Shown here piece by piece: positions 2,460-49,587 of a stretch of DNA of 64,000 bases. The notes beneath the pieces were generated by a model. That model was not told the origin of the DNA, did not search any database, and saw nothing but the letters and a program-made list of their open reading frames with translations. The number at the start of each line of letters is the position of its first letter. Within the stretch, counting starts at the first letter, position 1. The translations under genes were made by a program, and so were the position numbers. The DNA is from a virus, in IMG/VR virus record IMGVR_UViG_3300014039_000006. One strand, written 5' to 3'.

Positions 2460-3299
2460 ATGGCAATTAATAAAGTGGAATATAGCGGAAATACATTAAT
2501 TGACTTGACTTCTGACAGCGTGACACCGGAATCTTTGCTTTCCGGTGTCACTGCGCATGATGCGTCAGGAAATTTGATTACAGGAGAACTTAATCCGCAA
2601 AAAATATTTGATAATGCCGGATATCACAACAGTATTTTTCGCGGAAAGAACTTGGGAACGTCTGTCACGGAAGAACAATACGAAGCTATTTCTTCCGGAG
2701 AGTTCACAGATTTATTTGTTGGCGATTACTGGACTTTGAATAACGTAGTTTACCGTATCGTCGGCTTTGACCTGTTTTTACATACAGGAGATACAGAACT
2801 TACAACGCATCACGTTGTTATTGTTCCTGATAAAAATATGTACAGTCACGCGATGAACGATACAAATGTGACTACAGGTGGTTATTATAACAGCAAAATG
2901 AAACAAAGTGGTCTGACACAGGCTCTGACTACGGTAAAGGCGGCATTTGGTGAAAGTCACATAGTAAAAAGAAGAGTAATTTTGACGAATGCCATAAGTG
3001 GAGATAATCCATCCGGATGGGCGTGGTACGATACCTACATTGACCTTATGACAGAACGGCAGGTATATGGATCTCCTGCATGGGGACAGGCGGCACATAA
3101 TGGATATGATGCCGGATGTGAGTATTCAAGACTCCCATTGTTTACACTTGCACCGGAATTTATCACAAATAGAGCATGGTATTGGCTGCGAGATATCCGG
3201 TCGTCGTCTGCCTTCGCCGATGTCGGCAGCCTTGGCGGTGCCGACGGCGCCGGCGCGTCCTACTCCGGCGGGGTTCGCCCGCTTTTTTTAATCTCTTAA
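2460..3299 (+). CDS. DGR target protein 1 (putative receptor-binding protein with C-terminal variable region)
   Basis: AAGGAG SD. The C-terminus WYWLRDIRSSSAFADVGSLGGADGAGASYSGGVRPLFLIS is encoded by VR1. Lies directly upstream of avd-TR-RT. Confidence 0.85.
   Translation: MAINKVEYSGNTLIDLTSDSVTPESLLSGVTAHDASGNLITGELNPQKIFDNAGYHNSIFRGKNLGTSVTEEQYEAISSGEFTDLFVGDYWTLNNVVYRIVGFDLFLHTGDTELTTHHVVIVPDKNMYSHAMNDTNVTTGGYYNSKMKQSGLTQALTTVKAAFGESHIVKRRVILTNAISGDNPSGWAWYDTYIDLMTERQVYGSPAWGQAAHNGYDAGCEYSRLPLFTLAPEFITNRAWYWLRDIRSSSAFADVGSLGGADGAGASYSGGVRPLFLIS
3194..3281 (+). repeat. DGR variable region VR1
   Basis: Colinear with TR 3901-3988. All 21 mismatches are at TR adenine positions. Confidence 0.9.
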
Positions 3300-3900: not shown

Positions 3901-3988
3901 TATCCAGTCGTCGTCTAACTTCGCCAATGTCAACAACAATGGCAATGCCAACAACAACGACGCGTCCAACTCCAACGGAGTTCGCCCG
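3901..3988 (+). repeat. DGR template repeat (TR)
   Basis: Contains 26 adenines and reads as AAY-rich SSNFANVNNNGNANNNDASNSNGVRP. Matches VR1, VR2 and VR3. Confidence 0.9.
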
Positions 3989-4029
3989 ATTTCACAACTA
4001 CCTACTTGACATAGATTCTACTGGTAGCA

Positions 4030-5346
4030 ATGGGAAAGGAAAGGTTATCCATTCAGTGGAAACTGATAAAAGAAAATTCCGATATACTAAGTTACGACAA
4101 GGTATTAGAAACGGGGTTAAATATGAATCCATTAATAGATGCGAATAGTTTATATGACGCCGGAACACTTGCAATAAAAAGCAGCAGCTTCAAGTACAAA
4201 ACACAATTATTTGAAATGAACCATCTTTTGGAAACTGCATTATTGCAGAGAGAATTGCAAGAAGGAACGTATAAGCCGGAAAAAGGAACAAAGTTTCTGA
4301 TCCATGAAAGAGGAAAAATCAGATACATCACAAGCAACACGATGAGGGATAAAACGGTTAACCATGTGTTGTGTGATGAAATCGTCATACCATCCATAGA
4401 AAAGTACTTGATTTACGACAACAGCGCTTCGCAGAAAGGCAAGGGAACTTCTTTTGCCAGAAAGAGACTGGAAGAACACTTGCACAGTTATTATAGAAAA
4501 TATGGAACTAATGACGGCTATATCTTGTTGATGGATTTTTCTGGTTATTATGCAAATATTCCACACGATAAATGCAAGGACATTCTGTATAGAATGGTTT
4601 TCCGAGACGGACTTGAAGAAGAACCGACCAAAACAGTAATTGAAAATATTTTTAAATCCTACGAAATGGATGTTTCCTATATGTCTGATGAAGAAATAAA
4701 AGTCTTGTATAGCACAAAGGTAGATCCTGTAATGAACCAAAACGTTCCGAAAGAATTGCTTACAGAACAAAAGATGCTAAAGAAAGGAGCGGACATAGGA
4801 AATCAGCTTGCTCAAGCAATAGGAATTACTTTTCCTTATAAGATTGATAATTATGTGAAAATCGTAAGAGGGTGCAAATTTTACGCCAGATATACGGATG
4901 ACAGCTATATTATTTCGAGCGATAGGGAATTTTTGTTTGATGTTTTGGACGGTATTAAAGAAATTGCGGATGAACATGGAATCATATTGAACAAAAAGAA
5001 AACGAGGATAGTAAAGATTTCCTCGTTTTTCAGATTTATGCAGATAGGATATTCCCTAACTGCCACAGGAAAAGTGATAAAGAAAATAAATCCTAAAAAT
5101 GTGAGAAGGGAAAGGGTGAAGCTGAAAAAATATAAAAAGTTGTTAGATAATGGAAAAATGACATATGCAGACATAGAAAATTGCTTTAAGTCTTGGATAT
5201 GTACATACTGGAAAATTATGTCGCACCAACAATTATACAATATGAACGCCCTGTATAAGGAGCTGTTTGGAAAGGGAATAAAATGGAAAACGAAAAATTC
5301 ACGATTACATTGGTTGATGGAACACAGTTCACCGGACTTTCAATGA
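4030..5346 (+). CDS. DGR reverse transcriptase
   Basis: RT motifs: LLMDFSGYYANI, NSASQKGKG (SQ motif) and the catalytic YTDD box (ARYTDDSYII). Immediately downstream of TR. An alternative start is at 4123 (MNPLID). Confidence 0.85.
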   Translation: MGKERLSIQWKLIKENSDILSYDKVLETGLNMNPLIDANSLYDAGTLAIKSSSFKYKTQLFEMNHLLETALLQRELQEGTYKPEKGTKFLIHERGKIRYITSNTMRDKTVNHVLCDEIVIPSIEKYLIYDNSASQKGKGTSFARKRLEEHLHSYYRKYGTNDGYILLMDFSGYYANIPHDKCKDILYRMVFRDGLEEEPTKTVIENIFKSYEMDVSYMSDEEIKVLYSTKVDPVMNQNVPKELLTEQKMLKKGADIGNQLAQAIGITFPYKIDNYVKIVRGCKFYARYTDDSYIISSDREFLFDVLDGIKEIADEHGIILNKKKTRIVKISSFFRFMQIGYSLTATGKVIKKINPKNVRRERVKLKKYKKLLDNGKMTYADIENCFKSWICTYWKIMSHQQLYNMNALYKELFGKGIKWKTKNSRLHWLMEHSSPDFQ

Positions 5347-11949: not shown

Positions 11950-12378
11950 GTGAATCAGCTATTGCTTTTTCATGCCCTATTATACCGGAGAAAGGAGAAA
12001 AAGTCAAACGTGACAAAAGATAGGATAGAAAAAATTCTTATGAATATGGGGATATATCCATATCATGTTGGGTTTAAGTATCTTGTAGAAGCGATCCCGT
12101 TAGCTTTTGAAACCTTAGGAAAAACATCATTTGCAATGTATATCTATTGCGAGGTTGGAGAGAAATGCGGAGTTGATTACAGGTGCGTAGAACGTGGAAT
12201 AAGAGAGTCGCTAAAGAACATCAAAAGAGATAGCAGCGATTTCAAAAAGTACATCGGGATTAACAAGAATGAAAAGGTTACCACGAAGAAATTTCTTTCC
12301 ATGTTTGCATACAATTCTTTAAAAGAAAGGGGTGAAAGAATTGAACGAGATACAAATAACAGGAACGGTATTGGATAA
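11950..12378 (+). CDS. Spo0A C-terminal-domain-like DNA-binding protein
   Basis: GIYPYHVGFKYLVEAIPLA...YCEVGEKCGVDYRCVERGIRESLKNI resembles the Spo0A effector domain. The true start may be internal (GTG 12010 or ATG 12040). Confidence 0.5.
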   Translation: MNQLLLFHALLYRRKEKKSNVTKDRIEKILMNMGIYPYHVGFKYLVEAIPLAFETLGKTSFAMYIYCEVGEKCGVDYRCVERGIRESLKNIKRDSSDFKKYIGINKNEKVTTKKFLSMFAYNSLKERGERIERDTNNRNGIG

Positions 12379-12955
12379 TCCGAAATATTCACATTCGATC
12401 GGAGATTGCGTGATTTATTCATTTCCACTTGCGACCAGAAGATTAAGCAGAAATGTAGATTATGTAATGGTGCATATTTACGAAGAAATTAAAGACCAGT
12501 TTTACTTCGGTAAAAAGATTTCTATTTCTGGTGAAATGAGGACTTACAGGAGAAGAGGGGATGACGATAAACTTCATCTTTATCTGTATATAATGCCATA
12601 TGCAATAGATACAAATTCGGAGTTACTTGGAGAGGACGAAGACACCGGAGTTATCGAAGGGGAAATTCAATGGATTATTCCCTTGAGGAAGACTCCCAGA
12701 GGTCGAACAATCGTTGATTTTTGCTTGAAAAGTGAAAGGTTTAACGGAAAATACGACACCATTCCTTGTATTGCATGGGAAGAAAATGCGAATGATATTT
12801 CCTTATTGAAACCTGGAGATAAATTGAAAGTGAGAGGACGGTTGCAGAGCCGTGAATATGTAAAGAAATTTGAAAGCGGAGAAGCGGAAGTAAGAACCGC
12901 CTATGAGTTTTCTGTTTTTGAAGTGGAAGGGAGAAAAAATGGACTTAAACAGTAA
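12332..12955 (+). CDS. Tandem OB-fold, SSB-like protein
   Basis: Two repeats of the pattern ITGxV...P......G..v..F.la....., as at an SSB N-terminus. GTG start. Confidence 0.45.
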   Translation: MKELNEIQITGTVLDNPKYSHSIGDCVIYSFPLATRRLSRNVDYVMVHIYEEIKDQFYFGKKISISGEMRTYRRRGDDDKLHLYLYIMPYAIDTNSELLGEDEDTGVIEGEIQWIIPLRKTPRGRTIVDFCLKSERFNGKYDTIPCIAWEENANDISLLKPGDKLKVRGRLQSREYVKKFESGEAEVRTAYEFSVFEVEGRKNGLKQ

Positions 12956-13250
12956 AGAAAAAGAGGAACTATTTCAAAAAATGAACAGTGCAAATGTAGA
13001 TACGGTTTACGAGATCATCAAGAAAGATCAGCTTATCTTGATGATGCACGAATTAAAGGTGAAACAAGGTGCCGATCAAAAATTAACAACAACAGCGCTT
13101 CAAGCATTTTGCATATTGTTAGGAACTCTTGAAGGAGAAACAGGCTGCATAATTAAGAAAGTTGCATATGATCTTCTGTTTTCAATAATTGATATGAGAT
13201 TGCGCATGGAATATGAAGCAGAGAAAGGAGAAAAGGAAGATGAAAATTAA
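12939..13250 (+). CDS. Hypothetical protein
   Basis: ORF with an internal ATG and an SD-like GGGAGAAAAA. Confidence 0.45.
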   Translation: MDLNSKEKEELFQKMNSANVDTVYEIIKKDQLILMMHELKVKQGADQKLTTTALQAFCILLGTLEGETGCIIKKVAYDLLFSIIDMRLRMEYEAEKGEKEDEN

Positions 13251-15195
13251 ACACGTATTTGCACAGAATTTCTGCAAGTTTACAGGAACAAAAACGATTG
13301 ATTTTGATTTTTCAGACAAGACGATCGTTTCCGGAGCAAATGAAGCCGGAAAGTCTACAATTAAGACACTGATTTATTGGATCCTGAATTGCCGTGATGA
13401 AAACGGTAAGGAGATTACAGGAATCAGACCGCATGATAAGGACGGCGTGTACATGGACAACGTAGAAACGGTTGGAGCGGTTACATTTGACATTGACGGC
13501 GAAGAAAAGACCATGAAGAAGGTATTCCGGCAGAATATTAATAAGAAAGGCGAGTTTACCGGAAACGTCACGGATTATTATGTCAATGATATTCCGAAGA
13601 AAGCCACGGATTATGCGGATTTTATTGGCGAACGGATTGTTTCTGACGGTAAATTACCGTACTGCATTAATACCATGACTTTACTGCTTAAAAACTCCAC
13701 AGAACAGCGTGCGTTGTTACATGATACGTTCGGTCAACATACCGATGCGGATATCTGCGATATGTTTCCGGAGTTTGAGCCGTTGAAATCTATTCTTTCA
13801 GACGGAACAATCGAGGAACTGAAAAAGCGATGTAACACACAGTTGAACGGCACAAGAGGTAAGAACGGTAGCAAAGGATTGAATGACTTGCTTGACGAAA
13901 TCCCTAGCCGTATTGATGAGGTCAGCAGACAGAAAGTTGACCTTGACTTTGCGGAACTTGAACTGCAAAAGAACGGGATCCTTGAAAGAATTGCACAAAT
14001 TGACAAGTCATTATCAGACAATGAAGAACTTCTTGAAGAGGAAAAGAAGAAATCGGACGGCATTCTGGAATTGAAATTCAAGATTTCAGAATTGCAGAAC
14101 GAAGCCAACAGGAAAAACGACAAGAAGCGTGCTGATATCCGGTCACAGATTAGCCGTTTGGAGAACAACAGAGTGCAGTTGGATTCCGAAATTAAGGATC
14201 TTACCTTCAAGGACAAGTATCTTTCCAATTCGATCCTTACAAAAACAGAAGAACGAAAGAAACTCGCGGAGAAGTGGAAGGTAGAACATGACCGTGTATT
14301 TGACGATTCTACACTGGTTTGTCCTTATTGCGGTCAAGAATACCCAGAAGAGAAAAAAGGCCAGTTAAAGGCTGAATTTCAACAACACAAGGCCGATGAA
14401 CTGAAACACATCGAAGAAGAGGGAATGAATCTGAAATCTTACATTGACGATGGCAATGCAGAGATTTCAAAGATGCATGAATCTATTGAAGAAAAGAACA
14501 CAGAATTGCAGAAGATTATTGATGAAATTGCAAATTTGAATGCAGAATACAATGCAATTTCGGCTGTTGTGGATATTTCCGATACGGAAGAGGTAAAGGA
14601 AATTCAGAAACAGATTTCAGAAATGGAATCTGCAATGAAGAAAGAAAATTACATTGATGATATCAGGGTGAAACACAAAGCGGAAAGAGACCTTGCGAAT
14701 GCAGAATTAGCAGAGGTTCAGGCTAAAATTGCAAAGTCAGCATTCAATGCACAATTAGATGACAGAATCGCAGAACTGGAAGAGGAAAATAGAAATATCG
14801 CACAGAAAATTACGGACGTTCAAGCACAACTTGACCTGTTAAAACGGTTTAGTCGGAAGAAAAATGAACTTCTGGAAGCAGATGTGAACAGTTACTTGAA
14901 TTTCTGCAAGGTGAAAATGTTCCGTCCTCTTATTAACGGTGACACAGAAGAATGCTGCGAGTTTATTTACAACGGAGAGCCATACGGACAAAGATTAAAC
15001 CATGGAGCAAGGATTCTTGTAGAAATTGACATTTGCCGGGCATTTCAGAAGAAATATGGAGCAGAGATCCCAATTATCGTTGATGATACAGAGTCCGTTG
15101 ATGATTGGCGTATTCCGGAGATTGAAAGTCAGCTTATTTTATTGAAAAGAACGGATGAAAAGGAATTGTTCGTGAAAGGAGTCACGAATGGGTAA
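13240..15195 (+). CDS. AAA/SMC-like ATPase (SbcC/Rad50-like recombination protein)
   Basis: Walker A GANEAGKST, a long central coiled coil containing CPYCGQ, and a C-terminal IIVDDTES (Walker B-like). Confidence 0.7.
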   Translation: MKIKHVFAQNFCKFTGTKTIDFDFSDKTIVSGANEAGKSTIKTLIYWILNCRDENGKEITGIRPHDKDGVYMDNVETVGAVTFDIDGEEKTMKKVFRQNINKKGEFTGNVTDYYVNDIPKKATDYADFIGERIVSDGKLPYCINTMTLLLKNSTEQRALLHDTFGQHTDADICDMFPEFEPLKSILSDGTIEELKKRCNTQLNGTRGKNGSKGLNDLLDEIPSRIDEVSRQKVDLDFAELELQKNGILERIAQIDKSLSDNEELLEEEKKKSDGILELKFKISELQNEANRKNDKKRADIRSQISRLENNRVQLDSEIKDLTFKDKYLSNSILTKTEERKKLAEKWKVEHDRVFDDSTLVCPYCGQEYPEEKKGQLKAEFQQHKADELKHIEEEGMNLKSYIDDGNAEISKMHESIEEKNTELQKIIDEIANLNAEYNAISAVVDISDTEEVKEIQKQISEMESAMKKENYIDDIRVKHKAERDLANAELAEVQAKIAKSAFNAQLDDRIAELEEENRNIAQKITDVQAQLDLLKRFSRKKNELLEADVNSYLNFCKVKMFRPLINGDTEECCEFIYNGEPYGQRLNHGARILVEIDICRAFQKKYGAEIPIIVDDTESVDDWRIPEIESQLILLKRTDEKELFVKGVTNG

Positions 15196-40112: not shown

Positions 40113-40124
40113 TCCTTTCCCCTT

Positions 40125-40192
40125 CTAGCCTGTCATCATCGGAGCCGGGCGGCTGTCCCACGGCTGACGCTCCGGAGAGCGTTTCGACTATT
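40125..40192 (-). ncRNA. Hammerhead type II-like element 1
   Basis: Minus strand: ATAGTC-GAAA-CGCTC-TCCG-GAGCG-TC|AGCCG/CGGCT-CCGATGA-T-GAC. Confidence 0.55.
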
Positions 40193-40373
40193 TGTTTTCA
40201 ATTTCTTCTTTATATCTTTCTGCTTCTTCCAGTGTTGCGAAGTGTTTGCCAAATCCGCAATATGCAAATGTCTTTCCACCGTCAACGCTTCTAAAGATCA
40301 TAGCGTTGTAGTTGTAAATGTTTGCGACTGGAAAATGTAATTTCTGGATTTCTACCTTTTCGATTGTTTTCAT
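40188..40373 (-). CDS. Hypothetical 61-aa protein (mini-operon ORF1)
   Basis: AAAGGAGAG SD. Confidence 0.55.
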   Translation of the reverse strand: MKTIEKVEIQKLHFPVANIYNYNAMIFRSVDGGKTFAYCGFGKHFATLEEAERYKEEIENK

Positions 40374-40414
40374 ATTTGACTCTCCTTTTTGTTTGGTTTG
40401 TTTTCTTGTTGATA

Positions 40415-40580
40415 TTAATATAACACGATAACGTCATATTTGCAATATAAAATATGTAACAAAATTAATAAAAAATCGCATCCATTAATTGTTTAATATG
40501 TATAACGATAACGTTGTAATAATAACACGATATAATATTTGTTGACATGGATAAAACAATATGCTATCGTTATATGCAGA
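40415..40580. promoter_or_regulatory. Divergent promoter region with four TAAC(AC)GATA(A/G)C operator-like sites
   Basis: Sites at 40420-40434, 40501-40514, 40521-40536 and, inverted, 40561-40577. TTGACA at 40542. Minus-strand TTGCAA, 17 nt, TATATT spans site 1. Confidence 0.55.
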
Positions 40581-40619
40581 TAATATAAAACATAGCCAAT
40601 AGAAAGCGAGGTAGTAAGA

Positions 40620-40823
40620 ATGCCGGCAACAAAAGCACATATTAAAGCAACAACCAAATACGAGAAAAAAGCGTATTTTAAAACTTTGGTAAGATTTAAA
40701 AAATCAGATGAAGAAAAGATCAGAGAAGCAGCAGCCGGAAATCTAAATGGATTTATAGTTGATTGTGTACTGAAAGCAATTAATGACGTAAGCGAAAATA
40801 ATTTAATAGGTGCAAAAGAATAG
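40620..40823 (+). CDS. Small RHH/Arc-like regulator (paralogue of 41010..41426)
   Basis: KATTKYEKKAYFKTLVRFKKSDEEKIREAAAGNLNGFIVDCVLKAI aligns with KKAQNNYNSKFDLVQIKLPKGTKEKIREIIKENDTISGFCLKAVLNAI. Confidence 0.5.
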   Translation: MPATKAHIKATTKYEKKAYFKTLVRFKKSDEEKIREAAAGNLNGFIVDCVLKAINDVSENNLIGAKE

Positions 40824-40845: not shown

Positions 40846-40889
40846 TATGGGATCCCCGGATATGGAATAGTTATATAACATGATATATA

Positions 40890-40990
40890 ATAATTTCTAT
40901 ATGGTAATTATTATATAGTGATTCTGTATGATATTTACTATATAATAATTCTGTGTTAAAATTACTATATAGTAATTCGTATATAATAAT
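40890..40990 (+). repeat. Array of about four direct repeats (consensus ACTATATAGTAATTCTGT)
   Basis: Copies near 40894, 40909, 40937 and 40963, just upstream of ORF 41010. Confidence 0.6.
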
Positions 40991-41009
40991 CATAACAGGA
41001 GGTTTTACA

Positions 41010-41426
41010 ATGGCATTACCGAAATATGTTAAAAAGGCGCAGAATAACTATAATTCTAAGTTTGATCTTGTGCAAATTAAACTACCAAAAGGAACAAAGG
41101 AAAAGATCCGGGAAATAATCAAAGAAAATGATACTATAAGCGGATTCTGTTTAAAAGCTGTCCTAAATGCAATCGAAAACGGAAGCAGTGCGCAGGATCC
41201 CGGAGCAGTACCCGGTGAATCGGATCCGGATTTTGAGGAATACGACGAGAAGAGACAACAGCAAGAACTACAAGCCATGCTGGACGCTGCCAGAGCGAGA
41301 CACGCAGCCAATAATTACGAGGACAGGGAGCAGAAGCGCAGAGATACCATCGCGGCAGCTTCGGACATCAACGAAGGAGTGGCTGACTACAAGAAACCCG
41401 ACCCGGAGACCTACTTAAACGATTGA
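41010..41426 (+). CDS. RHH/Arc-like regulator paralogue with acidic C-terminal extension
   Basis: GGAGG SD before the ATG at 41010. N-terminal 50 aa are homologous to ORF 40620. Confidence 0.5.
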   Translation: MALPKYVKKAQNNYNSKFDLVQIKLPKGTKEKIREIIKENDTISGFCLKAVLNAIENGSSAQDPGAVPGESDPDFEEYDEKRQQQELQAMLDAARARHAANNYEDREQKRRDTIAAASDINEGVADYKKPDPETYLND

Positions 41427-41737
41427 AATTTGATTTTTACCCATTAGGTGGATAAATTATCAAGAAAAGATTTAAAAACCTTGTATAAGACGATTTGAAC
41501 CCTTAAAAAGGTTTTTAGTGTAACGGGTCAGCCAAAAGAGAAAACCGGACAATTTTTTCCCAACCCGGCACTTTTATTCCTGACCTCTGCCCCTATTATA
41601 TTTATAACAGTAGTGTATATTAAAGGTCTCTGTATGTAAATTCTTGGCTACTCACTACAGTTTAGAAAAAATATAGATTATGAGGGGGAATAATGGCCGG
41701 AGTTGCGGATGCAACCCGGAGCGCAGCGGAACATGGA

Positions 41738-41853
41738 GGATATAAATAAACATCTTTTCAGTTTATTTATATCCGACCGAGTGATAAATAAACATCTTTT
41801 CAGTTTATTTATCACGAGTACAGATATTGAACATCTTTTCAGTTCAATATCTG
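41738..41853 (+). repeat. Three tandem perfect hairpins with an invariant 9-nt loop
   Basis: Hairpins at 41738-41774, 41781-41815 and 41821-41853, all with the loop ATCTTTTCA closed by AAC/GTT. Stems are 12-14 bp; the third stem differs in sequence but stays complementary. Confidence 0.8.
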
Positions 41854-41878
41854 AACACTACTGATATACCTAAACAAT

Positions 41879-41996
41879 CTCAACGTAAATAAAGCCAATA
41901 AACTATCGTTTAGTCAATACATTGTTTTTATAACACTCTCAACGTAGATACTACCAATAACTTACCGTGTAGCCAATAACTTATATTTATAACACT
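41879..41996 (+). repeat. Two adjacent 59-bp direct repeats
   Basis: 41879-41937 and 41938-41996 match at 46 of 59 positions. Both start CTCAACGTA and end TTTATAACACT. Confidence 0.8.
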
Positions 41997-42328
41997 ATTA
42001 TTTACACTGTATATATTATATATAAGGGGAAGTGATTTTGAAACCGACAAATTGTTGACGAAAATTAGTTGTTGCATCATTCCGGTATTTAGTGTATCGT
42101 TAAATCATAAGTTGAACAGTGAAAACTTAATATCGTACAACACACATTAGTTTTACCAGTTATGCAAGTTTTATTTTTGTTTGATTCATCAAAAAGAGTT
42201 TTACAGTTTACAGTTACATTTACGATTTGATTACCAAGGAAGTGTTTAGAGATTGACGCTATAATTGCGTTTATTTCTTGATACTTCCTTTTTTGTTTGC
42301 CCAAAATACCGAGAAAGGAGCCGGAACG

Positions 42329-43108
42329 ATGAACGAAGAAAAGAAAGTTGAAGTTGTCAGTTTTGCGGATCAGGTAGAAGCCGAATTTATCCGGCTTTAT
42401 GAACAGTACCGGATAGCAGACGCCCCAGAGCGAAGAGTCCCGGATATGATCGACGCTATCTGGCCGAAGATCTACAAGAAGATTTTTGAACTGGATGAGT
42501 CCGAATCCTGGATTAATTGCAGTCATACAAGATTAAGGACTTGGAGATATTTAGACGTTGAATCTGTATGTGACGCCTATATAAATCTTTGCCGTGTATA
42601 CGGTGGAAAGATTAAACTTAATTCTTTCTGTGAATTAACTGGTATACATAGATATACTCTAGATCTATGGCATGAAAAAAATATAAATAATACTGTTATA
42701 TTTGAATTATCCGAAAAAGATATAGAGAAAGAATATAAGGAGACCGTATATATATTTAATAATATAAATGGCGAGGATATTGTTAGAAGACCTGAATGGA
42801 ATGAGATGAGGTTAAGTACTAAAAGAATCGACGTGCGACAAAAAATTGTCACTGCTGCCCGAGAGCAGAGCCGAAATGCAAGGTCAATTGACACTGTTGG
42901 TAATATCCAGATGAGCAACAATGATGAGGAACTCGGTTTCTTGTATGATACTAAACGAGATTTCAGAAAAGAGAGCATCAGACAGGCGTTAACAGTGGAT
43001 GATCTGCCAAAACTGGGAAATCTTAACAGGGGCACAGAAACACAAGATATAGTATGTAACGCAATACCGAATACTACATATGCGAAAATGACAGAAAATA
43101 GCGAATAA
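42329..43108 (+). CDS. Putative terminase small subunit
   Basis: AAAGGAG SD. HTH-like CDAYINLCRVYGGKIKLNSFCELTGIHRYTLDLW as in many TerS proteins. Lies at the head of the packaging region but 4.7 kb from TerL. Confidence 0.45.
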   Translation: MNEEKKVEVVSFADQVEAEFIRLYEQYRIADAPERRVPDMIDAIWPKIYKKIFELDESESWINCSHTRLRTWRYLDVESVCDAYINLCRVYGGKIKLNSFCELTGIHRYTLDLWHEKNINNTVIFELSEKDIEKEYKETVYIFNNINGEDIVRRPEWNEMRLSTKRIDVRQKIVTAAREQSRNARSIDTVGNIQMSNNDEELGFLYDTKRDFRKESIRQALTVDDLPKLGNLNRGTETQDIVCNAIPNTTYAKMTENSE

Positions 43109-43702: not shown

Positions 43703-44278
43703 ATGAAAATTGGGTATGTGAGAGTTTCAACAGTGGATCAGAATGAAGATCGACAGATTGAGGGACTTGAAAAGTATGGAATTGAAAAATGGTACATGGA
43801 GAAGGTTTCCGGGAAAAACATGAACCGGGAGCAGCTACAGGAAATGCTTTCTTGCATAAAAGAAGGAGATACCGTTTATGTACATGATTTTAGCCGATTG
43901 GCAAGAAGTACCAAGGATTTATTGGAAATCGTAGAAGTCCTTAATAAAAAGGGCGTTCACCTTGTAAGTAACAAGGAAAACATTGATACGTCTACTCCAC
44001 AAGGAAAATTGATGGTAACAATGCTTGCTGCAATTTACGAGTTTGAGAGAACAAATATGCTTGAACGTCAGGCAGAGGGAATTGAAATTGCAAAGAGGAA
44101 AAAGGTTTACAAGGGAAGAAAGCCGAAAGATATTTCCAGAGAGCAGATAATTGACGGCCTTAAGAGATACAAAGACGGACTTGTTACGAAAAAGGATCTC
44201 GCAAAGGAAATCGGGGTTTCGATTCCGACGCTTAACAAGAACTTTGACGAATTTGATCTTGGGAACAGTAAAGAATGA
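43703..44278 (+). CDS. Small serine recombinase (resolvase/invertase family)
   Basis: MKIGYVRVSTVDQNEDRQ catalytic N-terminus and a C-terminal HTH. 191 aa. Confidence 0.9.
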   Translation: MKIGYVRVSTVDQNEDRQIEGLEKYGIEKWYMEKVSGKNMNREQLQEMLSCIKEGDTVYVHDFSRLARSTKDLLEIVEVLNKKGVHLVSNKENIDTSTPQGKLMVTMLAAIYEFERTNMLERQAEGIEIAKRKKVYKGRKPKDISREQIIDGLKRYKDGLVTKKDLAKEIGVSIPTLNKNFDEFDLGNSKE

Positions 44279-44421: not shown

Positions 44422-44494
44422 AGGGATATCGCCAAGCGGTAACGGCACAGGATTTTGATTCCTGTATTCGTGGGTTCGAATCCCACTATCCCCG
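44422..44494 (+). tRNA. tRNA-Gln (anticodon UUG)
   Basis: Cloverleaf: acceptor AGGGATA/TATCCCC (A1.C72 mismatch), D arm GCC..GGC, anticodon arm CAGGA-TTTTGAT-TCCTG, T arm GTGGG-TTCGAAT-CCCAC. No encoded CCA. Confidence 0.8.
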
Positions 44495-44941: not shown

Positions 44942-45057
44942 CGGATAGTAGCTCAATAGGAAGAGCAGTATTTGAAAAATGTGTTAACAAAACACTAACA
45001 GCAATTACTTTTTTCAGGGGCGCATACGTGTTGGCGGTTCGAGTCCGTCCTATCCGA
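44942..45057 (+). ncRNA. tRNA-shaped RNA 2 with an expanded, branched anticodon domain
   Basis: Acceptor CGGATAG/CTATCCG, U8, D arm GCTC-AATAGGAA-GAGC, T arm GGCGG-TTCGAGT-CCGTC. A 65-nt insert (TGAAAAA...TTTTTCA stem, GTGTT/AACAC hairpin) replaces the 17-nt anticodon arm. Confidence 0.6.
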
Positions 45058-45203
45058 TTTACAACGCACACAGCAATTACAATGGACAAAACAGATAATT
45101 TTGAAACCAATAAATGCGTTGTTTTTATACAACCCTAACAGCAAACAATAATTATTTTTCTTTGGGCAAAAATGAAAAACAAGGGTTGGGAAAGGTGAAA
45201 AAA

Positions 45204-46664
45204 ATGGAATTTTCAGAAGCAATGAGAAATGACGGGAAGTTTACAAGAACGGAAAATGGTGCTGTTGCGTTAAACACAACAGGAAATTCGTGCCTTGATC
45301 TTTTTGGAACGATAGGTTCATTAAGATGCGCTGATAAAGTAAGGATTGAAACCATGTTTGCGGAAGCATACAAAGAAAATCCATTACTTGCTACAAAATG
45401 CGTATTTTACGCAAGAGACATTAGATGCGGTCTTGGCGAGAGAAAAACATTTAGAACACTTATTAAGTATATGGCAGAAAATCACCCAGAATCTATTCGC
45501 AATAATATTGATTTGATTGGCTTTTACGGAAGATATGATGATCTTTATTCTCTTGTCGGAACGCAACTTGAAGATGAAATGTTTTCTTCGATGAAAGATC
45601 AGTTTGAAAAAGATCTGGACTCCATGGAAAAAGGTTGCGCAGTTTCGCTTCTTGGAAAATGGATTAAAACAAGCGCAACCAGAAACAAAGACGGTAAGCA
45701 ACTTGGAATTTTGACGGCTGAAAAATTAGGATATGAGAACAAAGAATTTAATATTCTTGTTCGTAAATTACGGTCTTATATAGGGATTGTTGAAAGGGAT
45801 ATGTCTGCCGGAAACTGGGATAAAATTAAATATCCGGAAGTACCTAGCCGTGCAATGATGCTTTATAGAAAAGCGTTTGAAAGACACGATGCAGAAAGAT
45901 TTTCGGATTTTACAAGAAAAGCGTTATCTGGCGAAGAAAAAATCAATTCTTCTACGCTTTACCCATATGATATTGTCGAAAAAATATTATATAGTGGAAA
46001 AAATAGTGAAGTATTAGAAGCACAATGGAAGCAACTTCCTGACTACGTGGAAAAAGGAACAAATGCTTTGGTTATGGCAGATGTATCGGGATCCATGTAT
46101 GGAAGACCAATGGCAACATCAATTGGCCTTGCAATTTACTTTGCAGAGAGAAATGTCGGTGCATATCATAATCTGTTTATGACATTTTCCAGTATGCCAA
46201 AAACAGTTGCCTTAAAGGGAGAAACGCTTGAACAGAAGATATGCAATGTGAGCAGAGCGAATTGGAGCATGAATACAGATCTTCAAGCGGCTTTCTATAA
46301 AGTCCTTGAAATTGCGAAAAAAAACAATGTTTCACGGGAAGAAATGCCAAAATCTATTATTGTTATTTCTGATATGGAAATTGATGCTTGCGGAGACGAA
46401 GACTGGTCTTTCTATGACAATACGGCAAAGAAATTTAATGAGTCCGGTTATGATATTCCAAACATTATTTTTTGGAATGTAAACAGCAGAAGCAATGTAT
46501 TTCACGCAGATGCGGACAGAAAAGGAGTTCAAATTTGCAGCGGACAGTCAACCACAGTCTTTAAGCAATTGATTGGTTGCATTGGCTTTACTCCGGTTGA
46601 AATGATGAAAAAAGTTTTATGCTCTGAAAGATACGAGAATATTTCGATAGTGGGGAAAGCCTAG
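45204..46664 (+). CDS. Ro60-like architecture protein (helical N-domain + vWA with MIDAS; resembles DUF2828 family)
   Basis: N-terminus FTRTENGAVALNTTGNSCLDLFGTIGSLR (recalled as the DUF2828 signature). ~300-aa helical region, then the DxSGS MIDAS motif in VMADVSGSMYG. Confidence 0.6.
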   Translation: MEFSEAMRNDGKFTRTENGAVALNTTGNSCLDLFGTIGSLRCADKVRIETMFAEAYKENPLLATKCVFYARDIRCGLGERKTFRTLIKYMAENHPESIRNNIDLIGFYGRYDDLYSLVGTQLEDEMFSSMKDQFEKDLDSMEKGCAVSLLGKWIKTSATRNKDGKQLGILTAEKLGYENKEFNILVRKLRSYIGIVERDMSAGNWDKIKYPEVPSRAMMLYRKAFERHDAERFSDFTRKALSGEEKINSSTLYPYDIVEKILYSGKNSEVLEAQWKQLPDYVEKGTNALVMADVSGSMYGRPMATSIGLAIYFAERNVGAYHNLFMTFSSMPKTVALKGETLEQKICNVSRANWSMNTDLQAAFYKVLEIAKKNNVSREEMPKSIIVISDMEIDACGDEDWSFYDNTAKKFNESGYDIPNIIFWNVNSRSNVFHADADRKGVQICSGQSTTVFKQLIGCIGFTPVEMMKKVLCSERYENISIVGKA

Positions 46665-47835: not shown

Positions 47836-49587
47836 ATGTCTGTTGAACTCCAACAAACAGTTCAAGGTTATGAAAATTACATACAAAGAAAAGGCATAGA
47901 TGAAGAAGTCATTTATGCAATGCTAGAAGCGTCCACAGTAGCCATTAAGACGGAAAAGGATATTCAGTACGGACTTGTCCTTGCGGATAAAACCAAAAGT
48001 CTTATAGACTCATATACGGCATTGCATACAGACGGAGGAAGTATATGGGATCTTGAAGCATACGCTCAAAAGCACGAAACAGAGTACAAACTTGTTAATT
48101 GGGAATATGATCTTTTGTGGCTTGAAGCAAGAGAAAGATTTGAAAGTTTTATGCTTTACCTTGAAAAACGCCGTCCAGTAGAAGAAAGGTTTTATCAACC
48201 TAGAGTTATTCCGCTTAGAAGAGTTGCTAATGGCATTCAGGATCTTGTCGATGACAAACTGGACGAATTGTTTGTAAACTGCCCGAGCCGTGTTGGAAAA
48301 ACACAAATTGTTAAGTTGGGATTCGTTTGGTATGGATCTAAATTTCCAGAAAAATCCAACCTTTACACTGCATATTCGGACAAGATTACCGGCGGATTCT
48401 ATGACGGCATTCTTGAAATTATGACCGATCCAACATACACATATGCAGATATTTTTCCTGAAAACGTAGAAAAGAAGCTGATTACAGATGGAAAAGACAC
48501 AACGATTGACCTTATCCGAAAGAAAACTTATCCAACGTTTACCATGCGAAGTATTTATGGAACGCTGAACGGAGCCTGTGATTGTTCTGGAATGGGAGTT
48601 GCAGACGATTTGTTTAGTGGTATTGAGGAAGCATTAAGTCTAGATCGTCAGATCACCGTATGGGGGAAATTTGATAACAACTTTATGAAGCGTCTTAAGC
48701 GTAAGGCGAAATTGATTAATATGGGAACTAGATGGGCGCCTTTAGACGTTCAGGGAAGAAGAAGAAACCTTCTTGAAAACAAACCGGAATATAAAAACAG
48801 AAGGTGGAATGCGATTGTAATTCCGGCTTTAAATGAAAACGAAGAAAGTAACTTTGATTACCCGTATAATCTCGGATATTCTACCGAAGATTATTTGATG
48901 ATTCGGTCTTCTTTTGAGGAAAACGATGATATGGCATCTTGGTATGCACAGGATCAACAGGAGCCGATTGATCGTCATGGAGCATTATTTACCACTGACA
49001 ACATGAAATATTTTAATCCTACACAGGATTTACCGGATCGAGTACCGGATCGTATATTTGCAGCAGTGGATCCGGCATATGGTGGTGGTGACTTTGTGGC
49101 AATGCCTATTTGCTATCAGTTTACAACAGATTACTTTGTGGTAGATGTGGTTTACAACAACGGGGACAAAGAAGTTACAGTCCCGGAAGTAACGCAAAGA
49201 ATAGCTTTTCACCTTGAAAAATTCGCACCAAAAACAGCAGAGGTGCATTTTGAGGAAACAAAAACAACTACAGAATACCGGACTTTATGCCAGGAAGAAT
49301 GGAAAAGATTAAATGCACCGGTAAATGCTACGCATGACGCAGCACCAAACAACATATCCAAAGTTGACCGAATAAAAAACCATGCTCCGGATATTAGGAA
49401 ACTGTATTTTGTTGATAGGGAGCATCGAACAAAAGAGTACAACCAGTACTTTCAGAACATATTGACTTTTAAAACAGACGGTAAAAATAAGCATGATGAC
49501 GGAATAGATGCCACGGCGCAGCTTTGCGATATGATTTATGGCAGAAGAAGAACACGAAACACTGTTATTATTCAGAGTCCAATTTAA
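47836..49587 (+). CDS. Terminase large subunit
   Basis: Walker A-like NCPSRVGKTQ, and the C-terminal nuclease motif AAVDPAYGGGDFVAMPICY...HDDGIDA. AAAGGAGG SD. Confidence 0.85.
   Translation: MSVELQQTVQGYENYIQRKGIDEEVIYAMLEASTVAIKTEKDIQYGLVLADKTKSLIDSYTALHTDGGSIWDLEAYAQKHETEYKLVNWEYDLLWLEARERFESFMLYLEKRRPVEERFYQPRVIPLRRVANGIQDLVDDKLDELFVNCPSRVGKTQIVKLGFVWYGSKFPEKSNLYTAYSDKITGGFYDGILEIMTDPTYTYADIFPENVEKKLITDGKDTTIDLIRKKTYPTFTMRSIYGTLNGACDCSGMGVADDLFSGIEEALSLDRQITVWGKFDNNFMKRLKRKAKLINMGTRWAPLDVQGRRRNLLENKPEYKNRRWNAIVIPALNENEESNFDYPYNLGYSTEDYLMIRSSFEENDDMASWYAQDQQEPIDRHGALFTTDNMKYFNPTQDLPDRVPDRIFAAVDPAYGGGDFVAMPICYQFTTDYFVVDVVYNNGDKEVTVPEVTQRIAFHLEKFAPKTAEVHFEETKTTTEYRTLCQEEWKRLNAPVNATHDAAPNNISKVDRIKNHAPDIRKLYFVDREHRTKEYNQYFQNILTFKTDGKNKHDDGIDATAQLCDMIYGRRRTRNTVIIQSPI

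Follow-up and report, generated by a model that had tools for sequence, protein, structure and literature searches.

Three tandem hairpins with a nearly invariant nine-nucleotide loop upstream of the packaging operon of a temperate phage: a candidate DNA-level signal

DNA hairpins that proteins read through their loops are already known from the promoters of phage N4, from rolling-circle origins, and from single-strand initiation signals. In N4, supercoiling reportedly extrudes the hairpins, which the virion RNA polymerase then recognizes. Here, we consider an array of three tandem perfect hairpins, H1 to H3, in a 64,000-nucleotide (nt) stretch of viral DNA (IMG/VR record IMGVR_UViG_3300014039_000006; the whole stretch is hereafter called the window) that belongs to a temperate Firmicutes-style tailed phage. 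The array is situated 0.5 kb upstream of the gene for a 259-amino-acid (aa) helix-turn-helix (HTH) protein with weak similarity to small terminases, at the head of the TerL operon. We know of no other example of three tandem hairpins with an invariant 9-nt loop beside the packaging operon of a temperate double-stranded DNA (dsDNA) phage, and a literature search returned no description of such an array.

If the array acts as DNA, the N4 early promoters resemble it in several respects: they belong to a dsDNA phage, use small supercoil-extruded DNA hairpins as a code for a protein, carry their identity in the loop and upper stem, and number three. However, N4 is a lytic podovirus with its own RNA polymerase, and its hairpins, found at the genome end and not in tandem, combine 5- to 7-bp stems with 3-nt loops, whereas the array has stems of 12 to 14 bp and loops of 9 nt, in tandem at 39 to 42 nt. 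No N4-type single-subunit virion RNA polymerase was seen among the open reading frames (ORFs) scanned, and the likeness is one of analogy only. A conserved, recognized loop beside iterons is also found in pT181 IR-II, pMV158 IR-I, the circovirus nonanucleotide loop, RSF1010 ssiA/ssiB, and the complementary-strand origin of G4, and a 9-nt loop is the rule in circoviruses and geminiviruses. Such elements have a single hairpin per origin (G4 and RSF1010 have two or three, each different), whereas the array has three copies with the same loop, and this loop is not known to match their nick sites. No dedicated primase was found among the ORFs scanned, and no HUH or Rep_trans nickase among the roughly 50 ORFs scanned with Pfam or PHROGs.

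The whole array spans 116 nt, and its three units are as follows.

H1, positions 41738-41774, no strand assigned: 14-bp perfect stem, GGATATAAATAAAC (41738-41751) and GTTTATTTATATCC (41761-41774), 100% complementary; loop ATCTTTTCA at 41752-41760.
H2, positions 41781-41815, no strand assigned: 13-bp perfect stem, GTGATAAATAAAC (41781-41793) and GTTTATTTATCAC (41803-41815); loop ATCTTTTCA at 41794-41802.
H3, positions 41821-41853, no strand assigned: 12-bp perfect stem, CAGATATTGAAC (41821-41832) and GTTCAATATCTG (41842-41853); loop ATCTTTTCA at 41833-41841.

Inverted-repeat analysis bore out the preliminary description of this DNA, which had placed three perfect hairpins with a 9-nt loop and an AAC/GTT closure at these positions. 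H3 can alternatively be drawn as 15 bp with one mismatch (41818-41856). Loop ATCTTTTCA and the closing AAC/GTT are alike in H1, H2, and H3, and the units have only a 15-nt core, AACATCTTTTCAGTT, in common. This core occurs exactly three times in the window, always inside the array; with up to two mismatches allowed, four matches are found against 0.56 expected, and 0/100 shuffles reach four. The stems, 76% A-T and strictly regular, are bounded by G+C-rich linkers (GGAG, CGACSGAG, and CGASTW), and the distance of 39 to 42 bp from site to site is about four helical turns. When positions 41680-41870 are folded as single-stranded DNA (ssDNA), H1 to H3 form equally well on either strand, at -41.8 and -39.9 kcal/mol (z-scores of -10.1 and -8.8 for the two strands against 200 shuffles), and a further G+C-rich hairpin appears just 5' of them. 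A terminator scan found none at the array, where H1, H2, and H3 are followed on the 3' side by CGACCGAG, CGAGTA, and AACACT, respectively, with no T run.

Relatives were located via the 259-aa gene and via DNA patterns and are labeled with L-numbers. They represent, with the window, five diverged lineages of one uncultured temperate phage: the window with L144; L121, L139, and L148; L122 to L125 with L141, L142, and L146; L132; and L135. Each of the five has three hairpins, no more and no fewer, at this site and in this orientation, spaced by 39 to 42 nt (loop spacings are 41/40 nt in L132 and 40/39 nt in L135), and the identity of the neighboring 259-aa protein falls to 69% in L132 and 62% in L135. 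The H1 orthologues of L121, L122, L132, L135, and L139 have different stem sequences and are always perfect.

Evidence of selection on the pairing itself comes from an alignment of 16 distinct hairpins. Ten of the 16 have the loop ATCTTTTCA, and the rest have ATCTTCTCA, ATCTTTCCA, or ATTTTTTCA, which differ by T/C transitions only and give an ATCTTYTCA-like consensus across the five lineages. Two-sided changes are seen at 13/14 stem positions, with 67 doubly changed cells and none singly changed, and pairing is complete (100%) at the inner 12 stem pairs. Covariation scores 0.77, compared with 0.22 in shuffles (0/500 reach 0.77) and 0.09 to 0.13 in slid registers, and at least 28 compensated pair replacements are required across the lineages. 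Stem arms differ both between lineages and between hairpins within one genome, with complementarity intact. Because so many stem changes are compensated while the loop is close to fixed, selection for intrastrand pairing, together with a sequence-specific loop and closing pairs, is very well supported by these comparisons. The earlier proposal that the structure and its asymmetric loop are what is conserved therefore holds beyond the window, with massive covariation in the stems and a nearly invariant loop.

A second conserved element in the same contigs, about 0.4 kb downstream of the array, serves as a control for the level at which the hairpins pair.

42237-42300, + strand: conserved long imperfect hairpin (42237-42290) and, after it, TTTTTTGTTT; the start codon of the 259-aa gene comes about 30 nt later.

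In contiguous stems of the H1-to-H3 type, 209/209 pairs are Watson-Crick, with no G·T or G·U pairs, bulges, or mismatches, and each stem terminates at a true mismatch rather than a wobble. The hairpin at 42237-42290 has 29 G·U pairs in 155 (19%), all of which pair on the + strand only, and on that ground 42237-42300 is an RNA-level intrinsic terminator or attenuator of the + strand. The contrast between the two elements gives p = 3e-12 by Fisher's exact test, a value that is illustrative only, as the cells are not independent. Pairing by Watson-Crick geometry alone, set against a G·U-rich terminator in the same contigs, argues that H1 to H3 must pair on both strands, or as DNA, unlike an RNA helix. 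Among the options raised in the preliminary description, a recognized single-stranded hairpin is the right class of explanation, and an ssDNA packaging or replication signal fits best. More generally, comparing Watson-Crick-only covariation with a G·U-rich RNA hairpin from the same contigs can tell DNA-level from RNA-level structure by sequence alone.

The array lies within a 0.9-kb noncoding region (41427-42328) whose architecture is conserved throughout the alignment. Its other elements and the two genes that flank it are listed here.

41010-41426, + strand: 138-aa protein, putatively ribbon-helix-helix by sequence reading, syntenic in every hairpin-bearing relative.
41590-41611, no strand assigned: invariant block CCCCTATTATATTTATAACAGT, from the alignment, whose minus strand gives a -10-like TATAAT.
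41693-41749, + strand: 18-codon mini-ORF MAGVADATRSAAEHGGYK, ATG at 41693 and stop at 41747-41749, not conserved and probably not a gene.
41697-41719, no strand assigned: H0, a GC-rich hairpin, CCGGAGTTGC-GGAT-GCAACCCGG, from the ssDNA fold.
41719-41729, + strand: motif GAGCG-N(1-2)-AGCG(A/G), GAGCGCAGCGG in the window, from the alignment and a reading of relatives.
41873-41990, + strand: two tandem 59-nt repeats, iteron-like, each with CTCAACGTA and two CCAATA(A/C) boxes.
42010-42029, no strand assigned: invariant alternating A/T tract and then a G run, TATATATTATATATAAGGGG, with promoter-like matches on both strands.
42329-43108, + strand: 259-aa HTH protein, a small-terminase-like candidate whose gene opens the late/packaging operon.

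Several of these elements vary in sequence or number among relatives. At the position of H0, relatives have a hairpin of unrelated sequence (GTCCGC-TGT-GCGGAC in L122, GTCGGC...GCCGAC in L132, and TCAAATACAAGG-TCT-CCTTGTATTTGA in L135), and the GAGCG motif reads GAGCGAAGCGA in L121, GAGCGGAGCGA in L122 and L132, and GAGCGTCAGCGA in L135. This motif includes GCG-N-AGC, which we take to resemble the stable d(GCGNAGC) DNA mini-hairpins reported at some origins, and AGCGG (GAAGCGG in L132), which presumably resembles the Firmicutes Chi sequences of Bacillus and Staphylococcus. The 59-nt repeat is present as a single copy in L124. The A/T tract comprises roughly 20 bp of pure A/T and is separated by a poorly structured stretch from the terminator, after which comes the ribosome-binding site. 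Two pairs of short inverted repeats flank the region. A promoter scan of the + strand upstream of the array yielded no convincing sigma-70-type promoter; the best promoter-like matches flanking the array are on the minus strand, and a minus-strand match (41623->41595) overlaps block CCCCTATTATATTTATAACAGT.

Neither flanking protein has a direct match in Pfam, PHROG, or PADLOC. For the 259-aa protein, an AlphaFold2 (AF2) model built with 55 sequences that include remote homologues has a predicted local distance difference test (pLDDT) score of 83 and contains an HTH, where an earlier prediction from 7 sequences (pLDDT 41) was too poor for use. The 55-sequence model has no significant match in the PDB; its BFVD matches carry the names "DNA-packaging protein" (E 1e-5) and "gp3" (E 0.13). 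Weak similarity to GP3_package and PHROG terS is seen in a few of the remote homologues, and the gene lies 3 to 5 kb upstream of TerL (47836-49587 in the window) in every relative. These matches and the model make the protein a weak candidate for the small terminase. The putative small terminase that the preliminary description had placed about 0.5 kb downstream of the array does, then, resemble one and head the TerL operon, although the resemblance is weak. Between the 259-aa gene and TerL are variable accessory genes, namely, an invertase, a tRNA, a Ro-like protein, and RtcB. On the other side of the array, the 138-aa protein is a weak paralogue of the product of 40620-40823 (E 1e-4).

The distribution of the array is narrow. 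No isolated phage has nucleotide similarity to 41400-42400, and 185,579 GTDB genomes contain neither the array nor a homologue of the 259-aa gene. In IMG/VR, the single 15-mer gives scattered single chance matches only, while two-loop and three-loop patterns recover the same five related contigs plus unrelated tandem repeats elsewhere; a metagenome scan added six further contigs, all from the clade of the window, along with eight unrelated tandem repeats. The element is restricted to a single small clade of uncultured phages of the gut, which limits its practical reach.

We favor, tentatively and at somewhat less than an even chance, the possibility that H1 to H3 form a cis-acting DNA signal whose hairpins are read through the loop by a protein, in packaging initiation or in control of the late operon. 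The A/T-rich perfect palindromes would leave the duplex as cruciforms under negative supercoiling, or each would fold as a hairpin whenever its strand is single. Either form would display the fixed 9-nt loop ATCTTYTCA, or its complement, together with the closing AAC/GTT pairs, and a sequence-specific protein would recognize the loop together with the uppermost stem. The remaining stem would need only to pair and would drift through compensated changes. Most likely, such a signal would serve as a loading site for a phage protein that initiates a late event. Given where the array sits, ahead of the packaging genes, and given its three phased sites and the iteron-like repeats beside it, we rank first a role in packaging, in which the small-terminase-like 259-aa HTH protein would recognize the packaging start, by analogy with the lambda cosB R sites and SPP1 pacL/pacR; second, control of a late promoter that depends on supercoiling or topology; and third, a priming or secondary-origin signal. 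The setting would suit such a signal, with its iteron-like repeats and A/T tract in what looks like a control region and its flanking proteins of apparent DNA-binding type. The DNA-level folding, the choice of binding protein, and the part played in packaging or late control are all points that we infer from sequence. It is improbable, in our estimate, that the case extends in full to a temperate Firmicutes-type siphovirus that uses extruded hairpins with a fixed 9-nt loop for terminase loading or for a supercoil-gated late operon. If it did, the hairpin-as-signal logic of N4 promoters and rolling-circle origins would extend to packaging or late control in an ordinary dsDNA prophage, with DNA topology as the switch. 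Should the DNA-level reading be right, the array would offer a compact and easily testable dsDNA phage case of non-B DNA as a protein-recognition signal, and it could tie packaging or late expression to DNA supercoiling or to the state of replication.

The comparison with packaging sites also brings out differences. Lambda cosB R3/R2/R1 and SPP1 pacL/pacR share with the array phased sites at the head of the packaging operon, just 5' of a gene for a small terminase (for the array, a weak candidate), near repeats and bendable DNA. However, they are read as duplex and conserved in sequence, rather than being covarying perfect palindromes with a fixed center; here, the terminase identity of the 259-aa protein is weakly supported, and contigs run through the site. 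Several observations weigh against a DNA signal for packaging or late control. All 14 array-bearing contigs continue through the region, so that no fixed genome end is indicated there. The lack of a direct Pfam, PHROG, or PDB match for the 259-aa protein leaves its assignment as a small terminase weak. Regions upstream of 259-aa homologues with up to 50% identity, several of them very short, contain no ATCTTYTCA hairpins, and the array is therefore not an obligate partner of this protein family. A 9-nt spacer makes cruciform extrusion less favorable than in spacer-free palindromes. Finally, perfect palindromes tend toward self-correction through template switching in replication, and the Watson-Crick-only stems could be partly such a mutational effect, even with RNA as the working form; template-switch correction, however, itself requires formation of a DNA hairpin.

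Of the other ways to account for the array, the one to be taken most seriously, doubtful as we consider it, is that the hairpins act as RNA in a leader or inter-operon transcript, either as antitermination sites of the nut or put kind or as targets of an RNA-binding regulator, with read-through of the terminator at 42237-42300. The conserved terminator so close to the start codon of the first late gene leaves no room for a promoter between the two, so that the gene must be reached by read-through, and the late/packaging operon probably needs read-through or antitermination. The layout recurs in the distant homologues L154, L156, and L158 (up to 50% identity), which have a similar hairpin and T-run leader directly before the gene. 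In addition, all three hairpins point the same way and present a pyrimidine-rich loop on the coding strand, and no strong terminator intervenes between the upstream gene and the array. Like the array, lambda nut boxB and HK022 put are hairpins between an upstream operon and a terminator with conserved loop identity. The array differs from them in its much longer, A/U-rich, perfectly regular stems and in its lack of any G·U pair despite the many compensated replacements, where the neighboring RNA hairpin is rich in them. A boxA-like partner and an N-like protein were not identified, and a search of Rfam gave no match to the array, either at gathering score or at E <= 10; four sub-threshold Rfam matches in 41300-42400 all fall outside it, far below gathering scores. 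Nor is there a promoter-like site 5' of the array on the + strand or a conserved RNA structure from the array to the terminator. CsrB and RsmZ sponge RNAs likewise have repeated hairpins with an invariant loop and free stems, but the loop of the array has no GGA motif, and the evidence favors DNA over RNA. The RNA options of the preliminary description are thus disfavored by the pairing itself, yet the real, conserved terminator does supply a context for antitermination. The preliminary description had also proposed an attenuator, in which translation of the 18-codon mini-ORF melts H1 and so controls downstream transcription. The ORF exists and in the window stops inside the 5' arm of H1, as described, but its start, frame, length, and stop differ among relatives: L121 has a 12-codon ORF that stops 14 nt before H1, L132 an 18-codon ORF of unrelated sequence that stops 6 nt before H1, and L122 and L124 a 61-codon frame through all three hairpins, while L135 has no ATG and L139 an ATG with an immediate stop. 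A G-rich box, GAGGGGGA, ends just 3 nt 5' of the ATG, and H1 to H3, which are A/T rich and have no U tract, are not terminators. As the mini-ORF is not conserved among the five lineages, we reject a leader-peptide attenuator and regard its probability as next to negligible.

Explanations at the DNA level other than the one we favor are also to be weighed. A replication signal, which we think unlikely, would consist of ssDNA initiation or primosome hairpins, or of a secondary origin with the 59-nt iterons and the A/T tract, used on the strand displaced in sigma-mode or recombination-dependent replication. Iteron-like repeats, an A/T tract of about 20 bp, and hairpins do resemble plasmid and phage origins, the GCG-N-AGC motif fits the DNA mini-hairpin class of some origins, and the phage encodes two proteins like single-stranded DNA-binding protein (SSB), a RecT, and an SMC-like ATPase. 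Moreover, positions 289-451 of L136, before a 47%-identical homologue of the 259-aa protein, hold perfect DnaA boxes (TTATCCACA twice and TGTGGATAA), not hairpins, which suggests that the region before this gene family can host an origin-like element in other mobile elements. On the other hand, the DnaD-like initiator and helicase loader are encoded 16 kb away, no motif of the array region recurs near that replication module, structure-specific primosome proteins need no invariant loop, and neither a primase nor a nickase turned up in the ORF scans mentioned above. Very unlikely, in our judgment, is a duplex operator, in which a dimeric repressor or activator, such as the ribbon-helix-helix or HTH neighbor, binds the palindromes as dsDNA without any hairpin. 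Genes of DNA-binding type do flank the region, and the sites are phased by about four helical turns, but a dimer that reads half-sites would conserve the arms and tolerate imperfect symmetry, whereas here the arms vary and the asymmetric center is fixed. Only a slight chance is given to a recombination site, res-like or invertible and served by a serine recombinase (43703-44278), or to functionless selfish palindromic repeats. Three inverted-repeat sites over about 116 bp recall the three subsites of res, the gene for this 191-aa resolvase/invertase is 1.85 kb downstream, and the short inverted repeats flank the region. The recombinase, however, is confined to the window and the L121/L148 lineages and is absent from L122 to L125 and from the recovered parts of L132 and L133; the arms are unconserved, unlike res half-sites; and block order and orientation are identical in every contig that spans the region, an arrangement on which we also rejected an invertible segment. 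As for selfish repeats, the motif is not dispersed, with one array in the window and none in the GTDB genomes or elsewhere in IMG/VR.

Other candidates were tried and rejected. A coding ORF across the hairpins (41703-41864), with the peptide repeat NKHLFSLF, stays open in the window, in L122 and L124, and, by reading, in L121; its frame is broken in L132 and L135, where the loop spacings are not multiples of three. For type III toxin-antitoxin repeats, the units share only the 15-nt core, and the downstream protein is a helical HTH protein with no PADLOC match. Pairing of the loop with an arm of the terminator, the Shine-Dalgarno region, or a tRNA anticodon loop, judged by eye, is inconsistent across the loop variants. 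Comparison of the core with CodY, LexA, and cre boxes and with pC194-type nick sites, also by eye, gave weak matches that leave the palindromy unexplained.

The genome around the array has strong Shine-Dalgarno sites and nearly all of its genes on the + strand. Identified genes encode an endolysin, antirepressors, RecT, SSB, the DnaD-like initiator and helicase loader, and a large serine integrase, and the nearest TerL among isolated phages, that of Clostridium innocuum phage Maintenon, is 38% identical. At 40860-41000, just 5' of the putative ribbon-helix-helix gene, ACTATATAATAATT occurs four times, alternating in orientation, in a cluster that looks operator-like, and a second repeat set, ATAACACGATAACG, occupies the divergent region at 40380-40620. 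Farther upstream, a match to a type II hammerhead ribozyme (40124-40189, minus strand; 43.1 bits, gathering score 37) lies immediately 3' of a 61-codon ORF (40188-40373, minus strand) with a good ribosome-binding site, in a genome that is otherwise rightward.

Among the accessory genes between the 259-aa gene and TerL, the 191-aa serine resolvase/invertase is present in some relatives only. A normal tRNA-Gln(TTG) is found at 44422-44494. Farther along, a tRNA-like RNA (44942-45057, + strand) scores 41.6 bits against the tRNA model, with acceptor, D, and T arms intact and a 54-nt insert in place of the anticodon arm. Directly 3' of it is the gene for a 516-aa Ro-like protein (45114-46664) with DUF2828, DUF7788, and VWA matches, classed in PHROG as an "RNA-binding protein". 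By these features, the pair looks like a YrlA-type Y RNA with its Ro partner in a phage.

At the other end of the window, a reverse transcriptase (4030-5346) is preceded just upstream by a 92-nt template-like repeat (3901-3992) that matches the 3' end of ORF 2460-3299 (3194-3285) at 76% identity, with 22 mismatches. This is likely a diversity-generating retroelement. Finally, the second SSB-like protein, an atypical SSB/OB-fold protein of 207 aa (12332-12955), is encoded beside the 660-aa SMC-like ATPase (13213-15195). The latter matches both the PHROG "SbcC-like palindrome-specific endonuclease subunit" and the PADLOC Lamassu protein LmuB, a similarity worthy of note in a genome with perfect palindromes.

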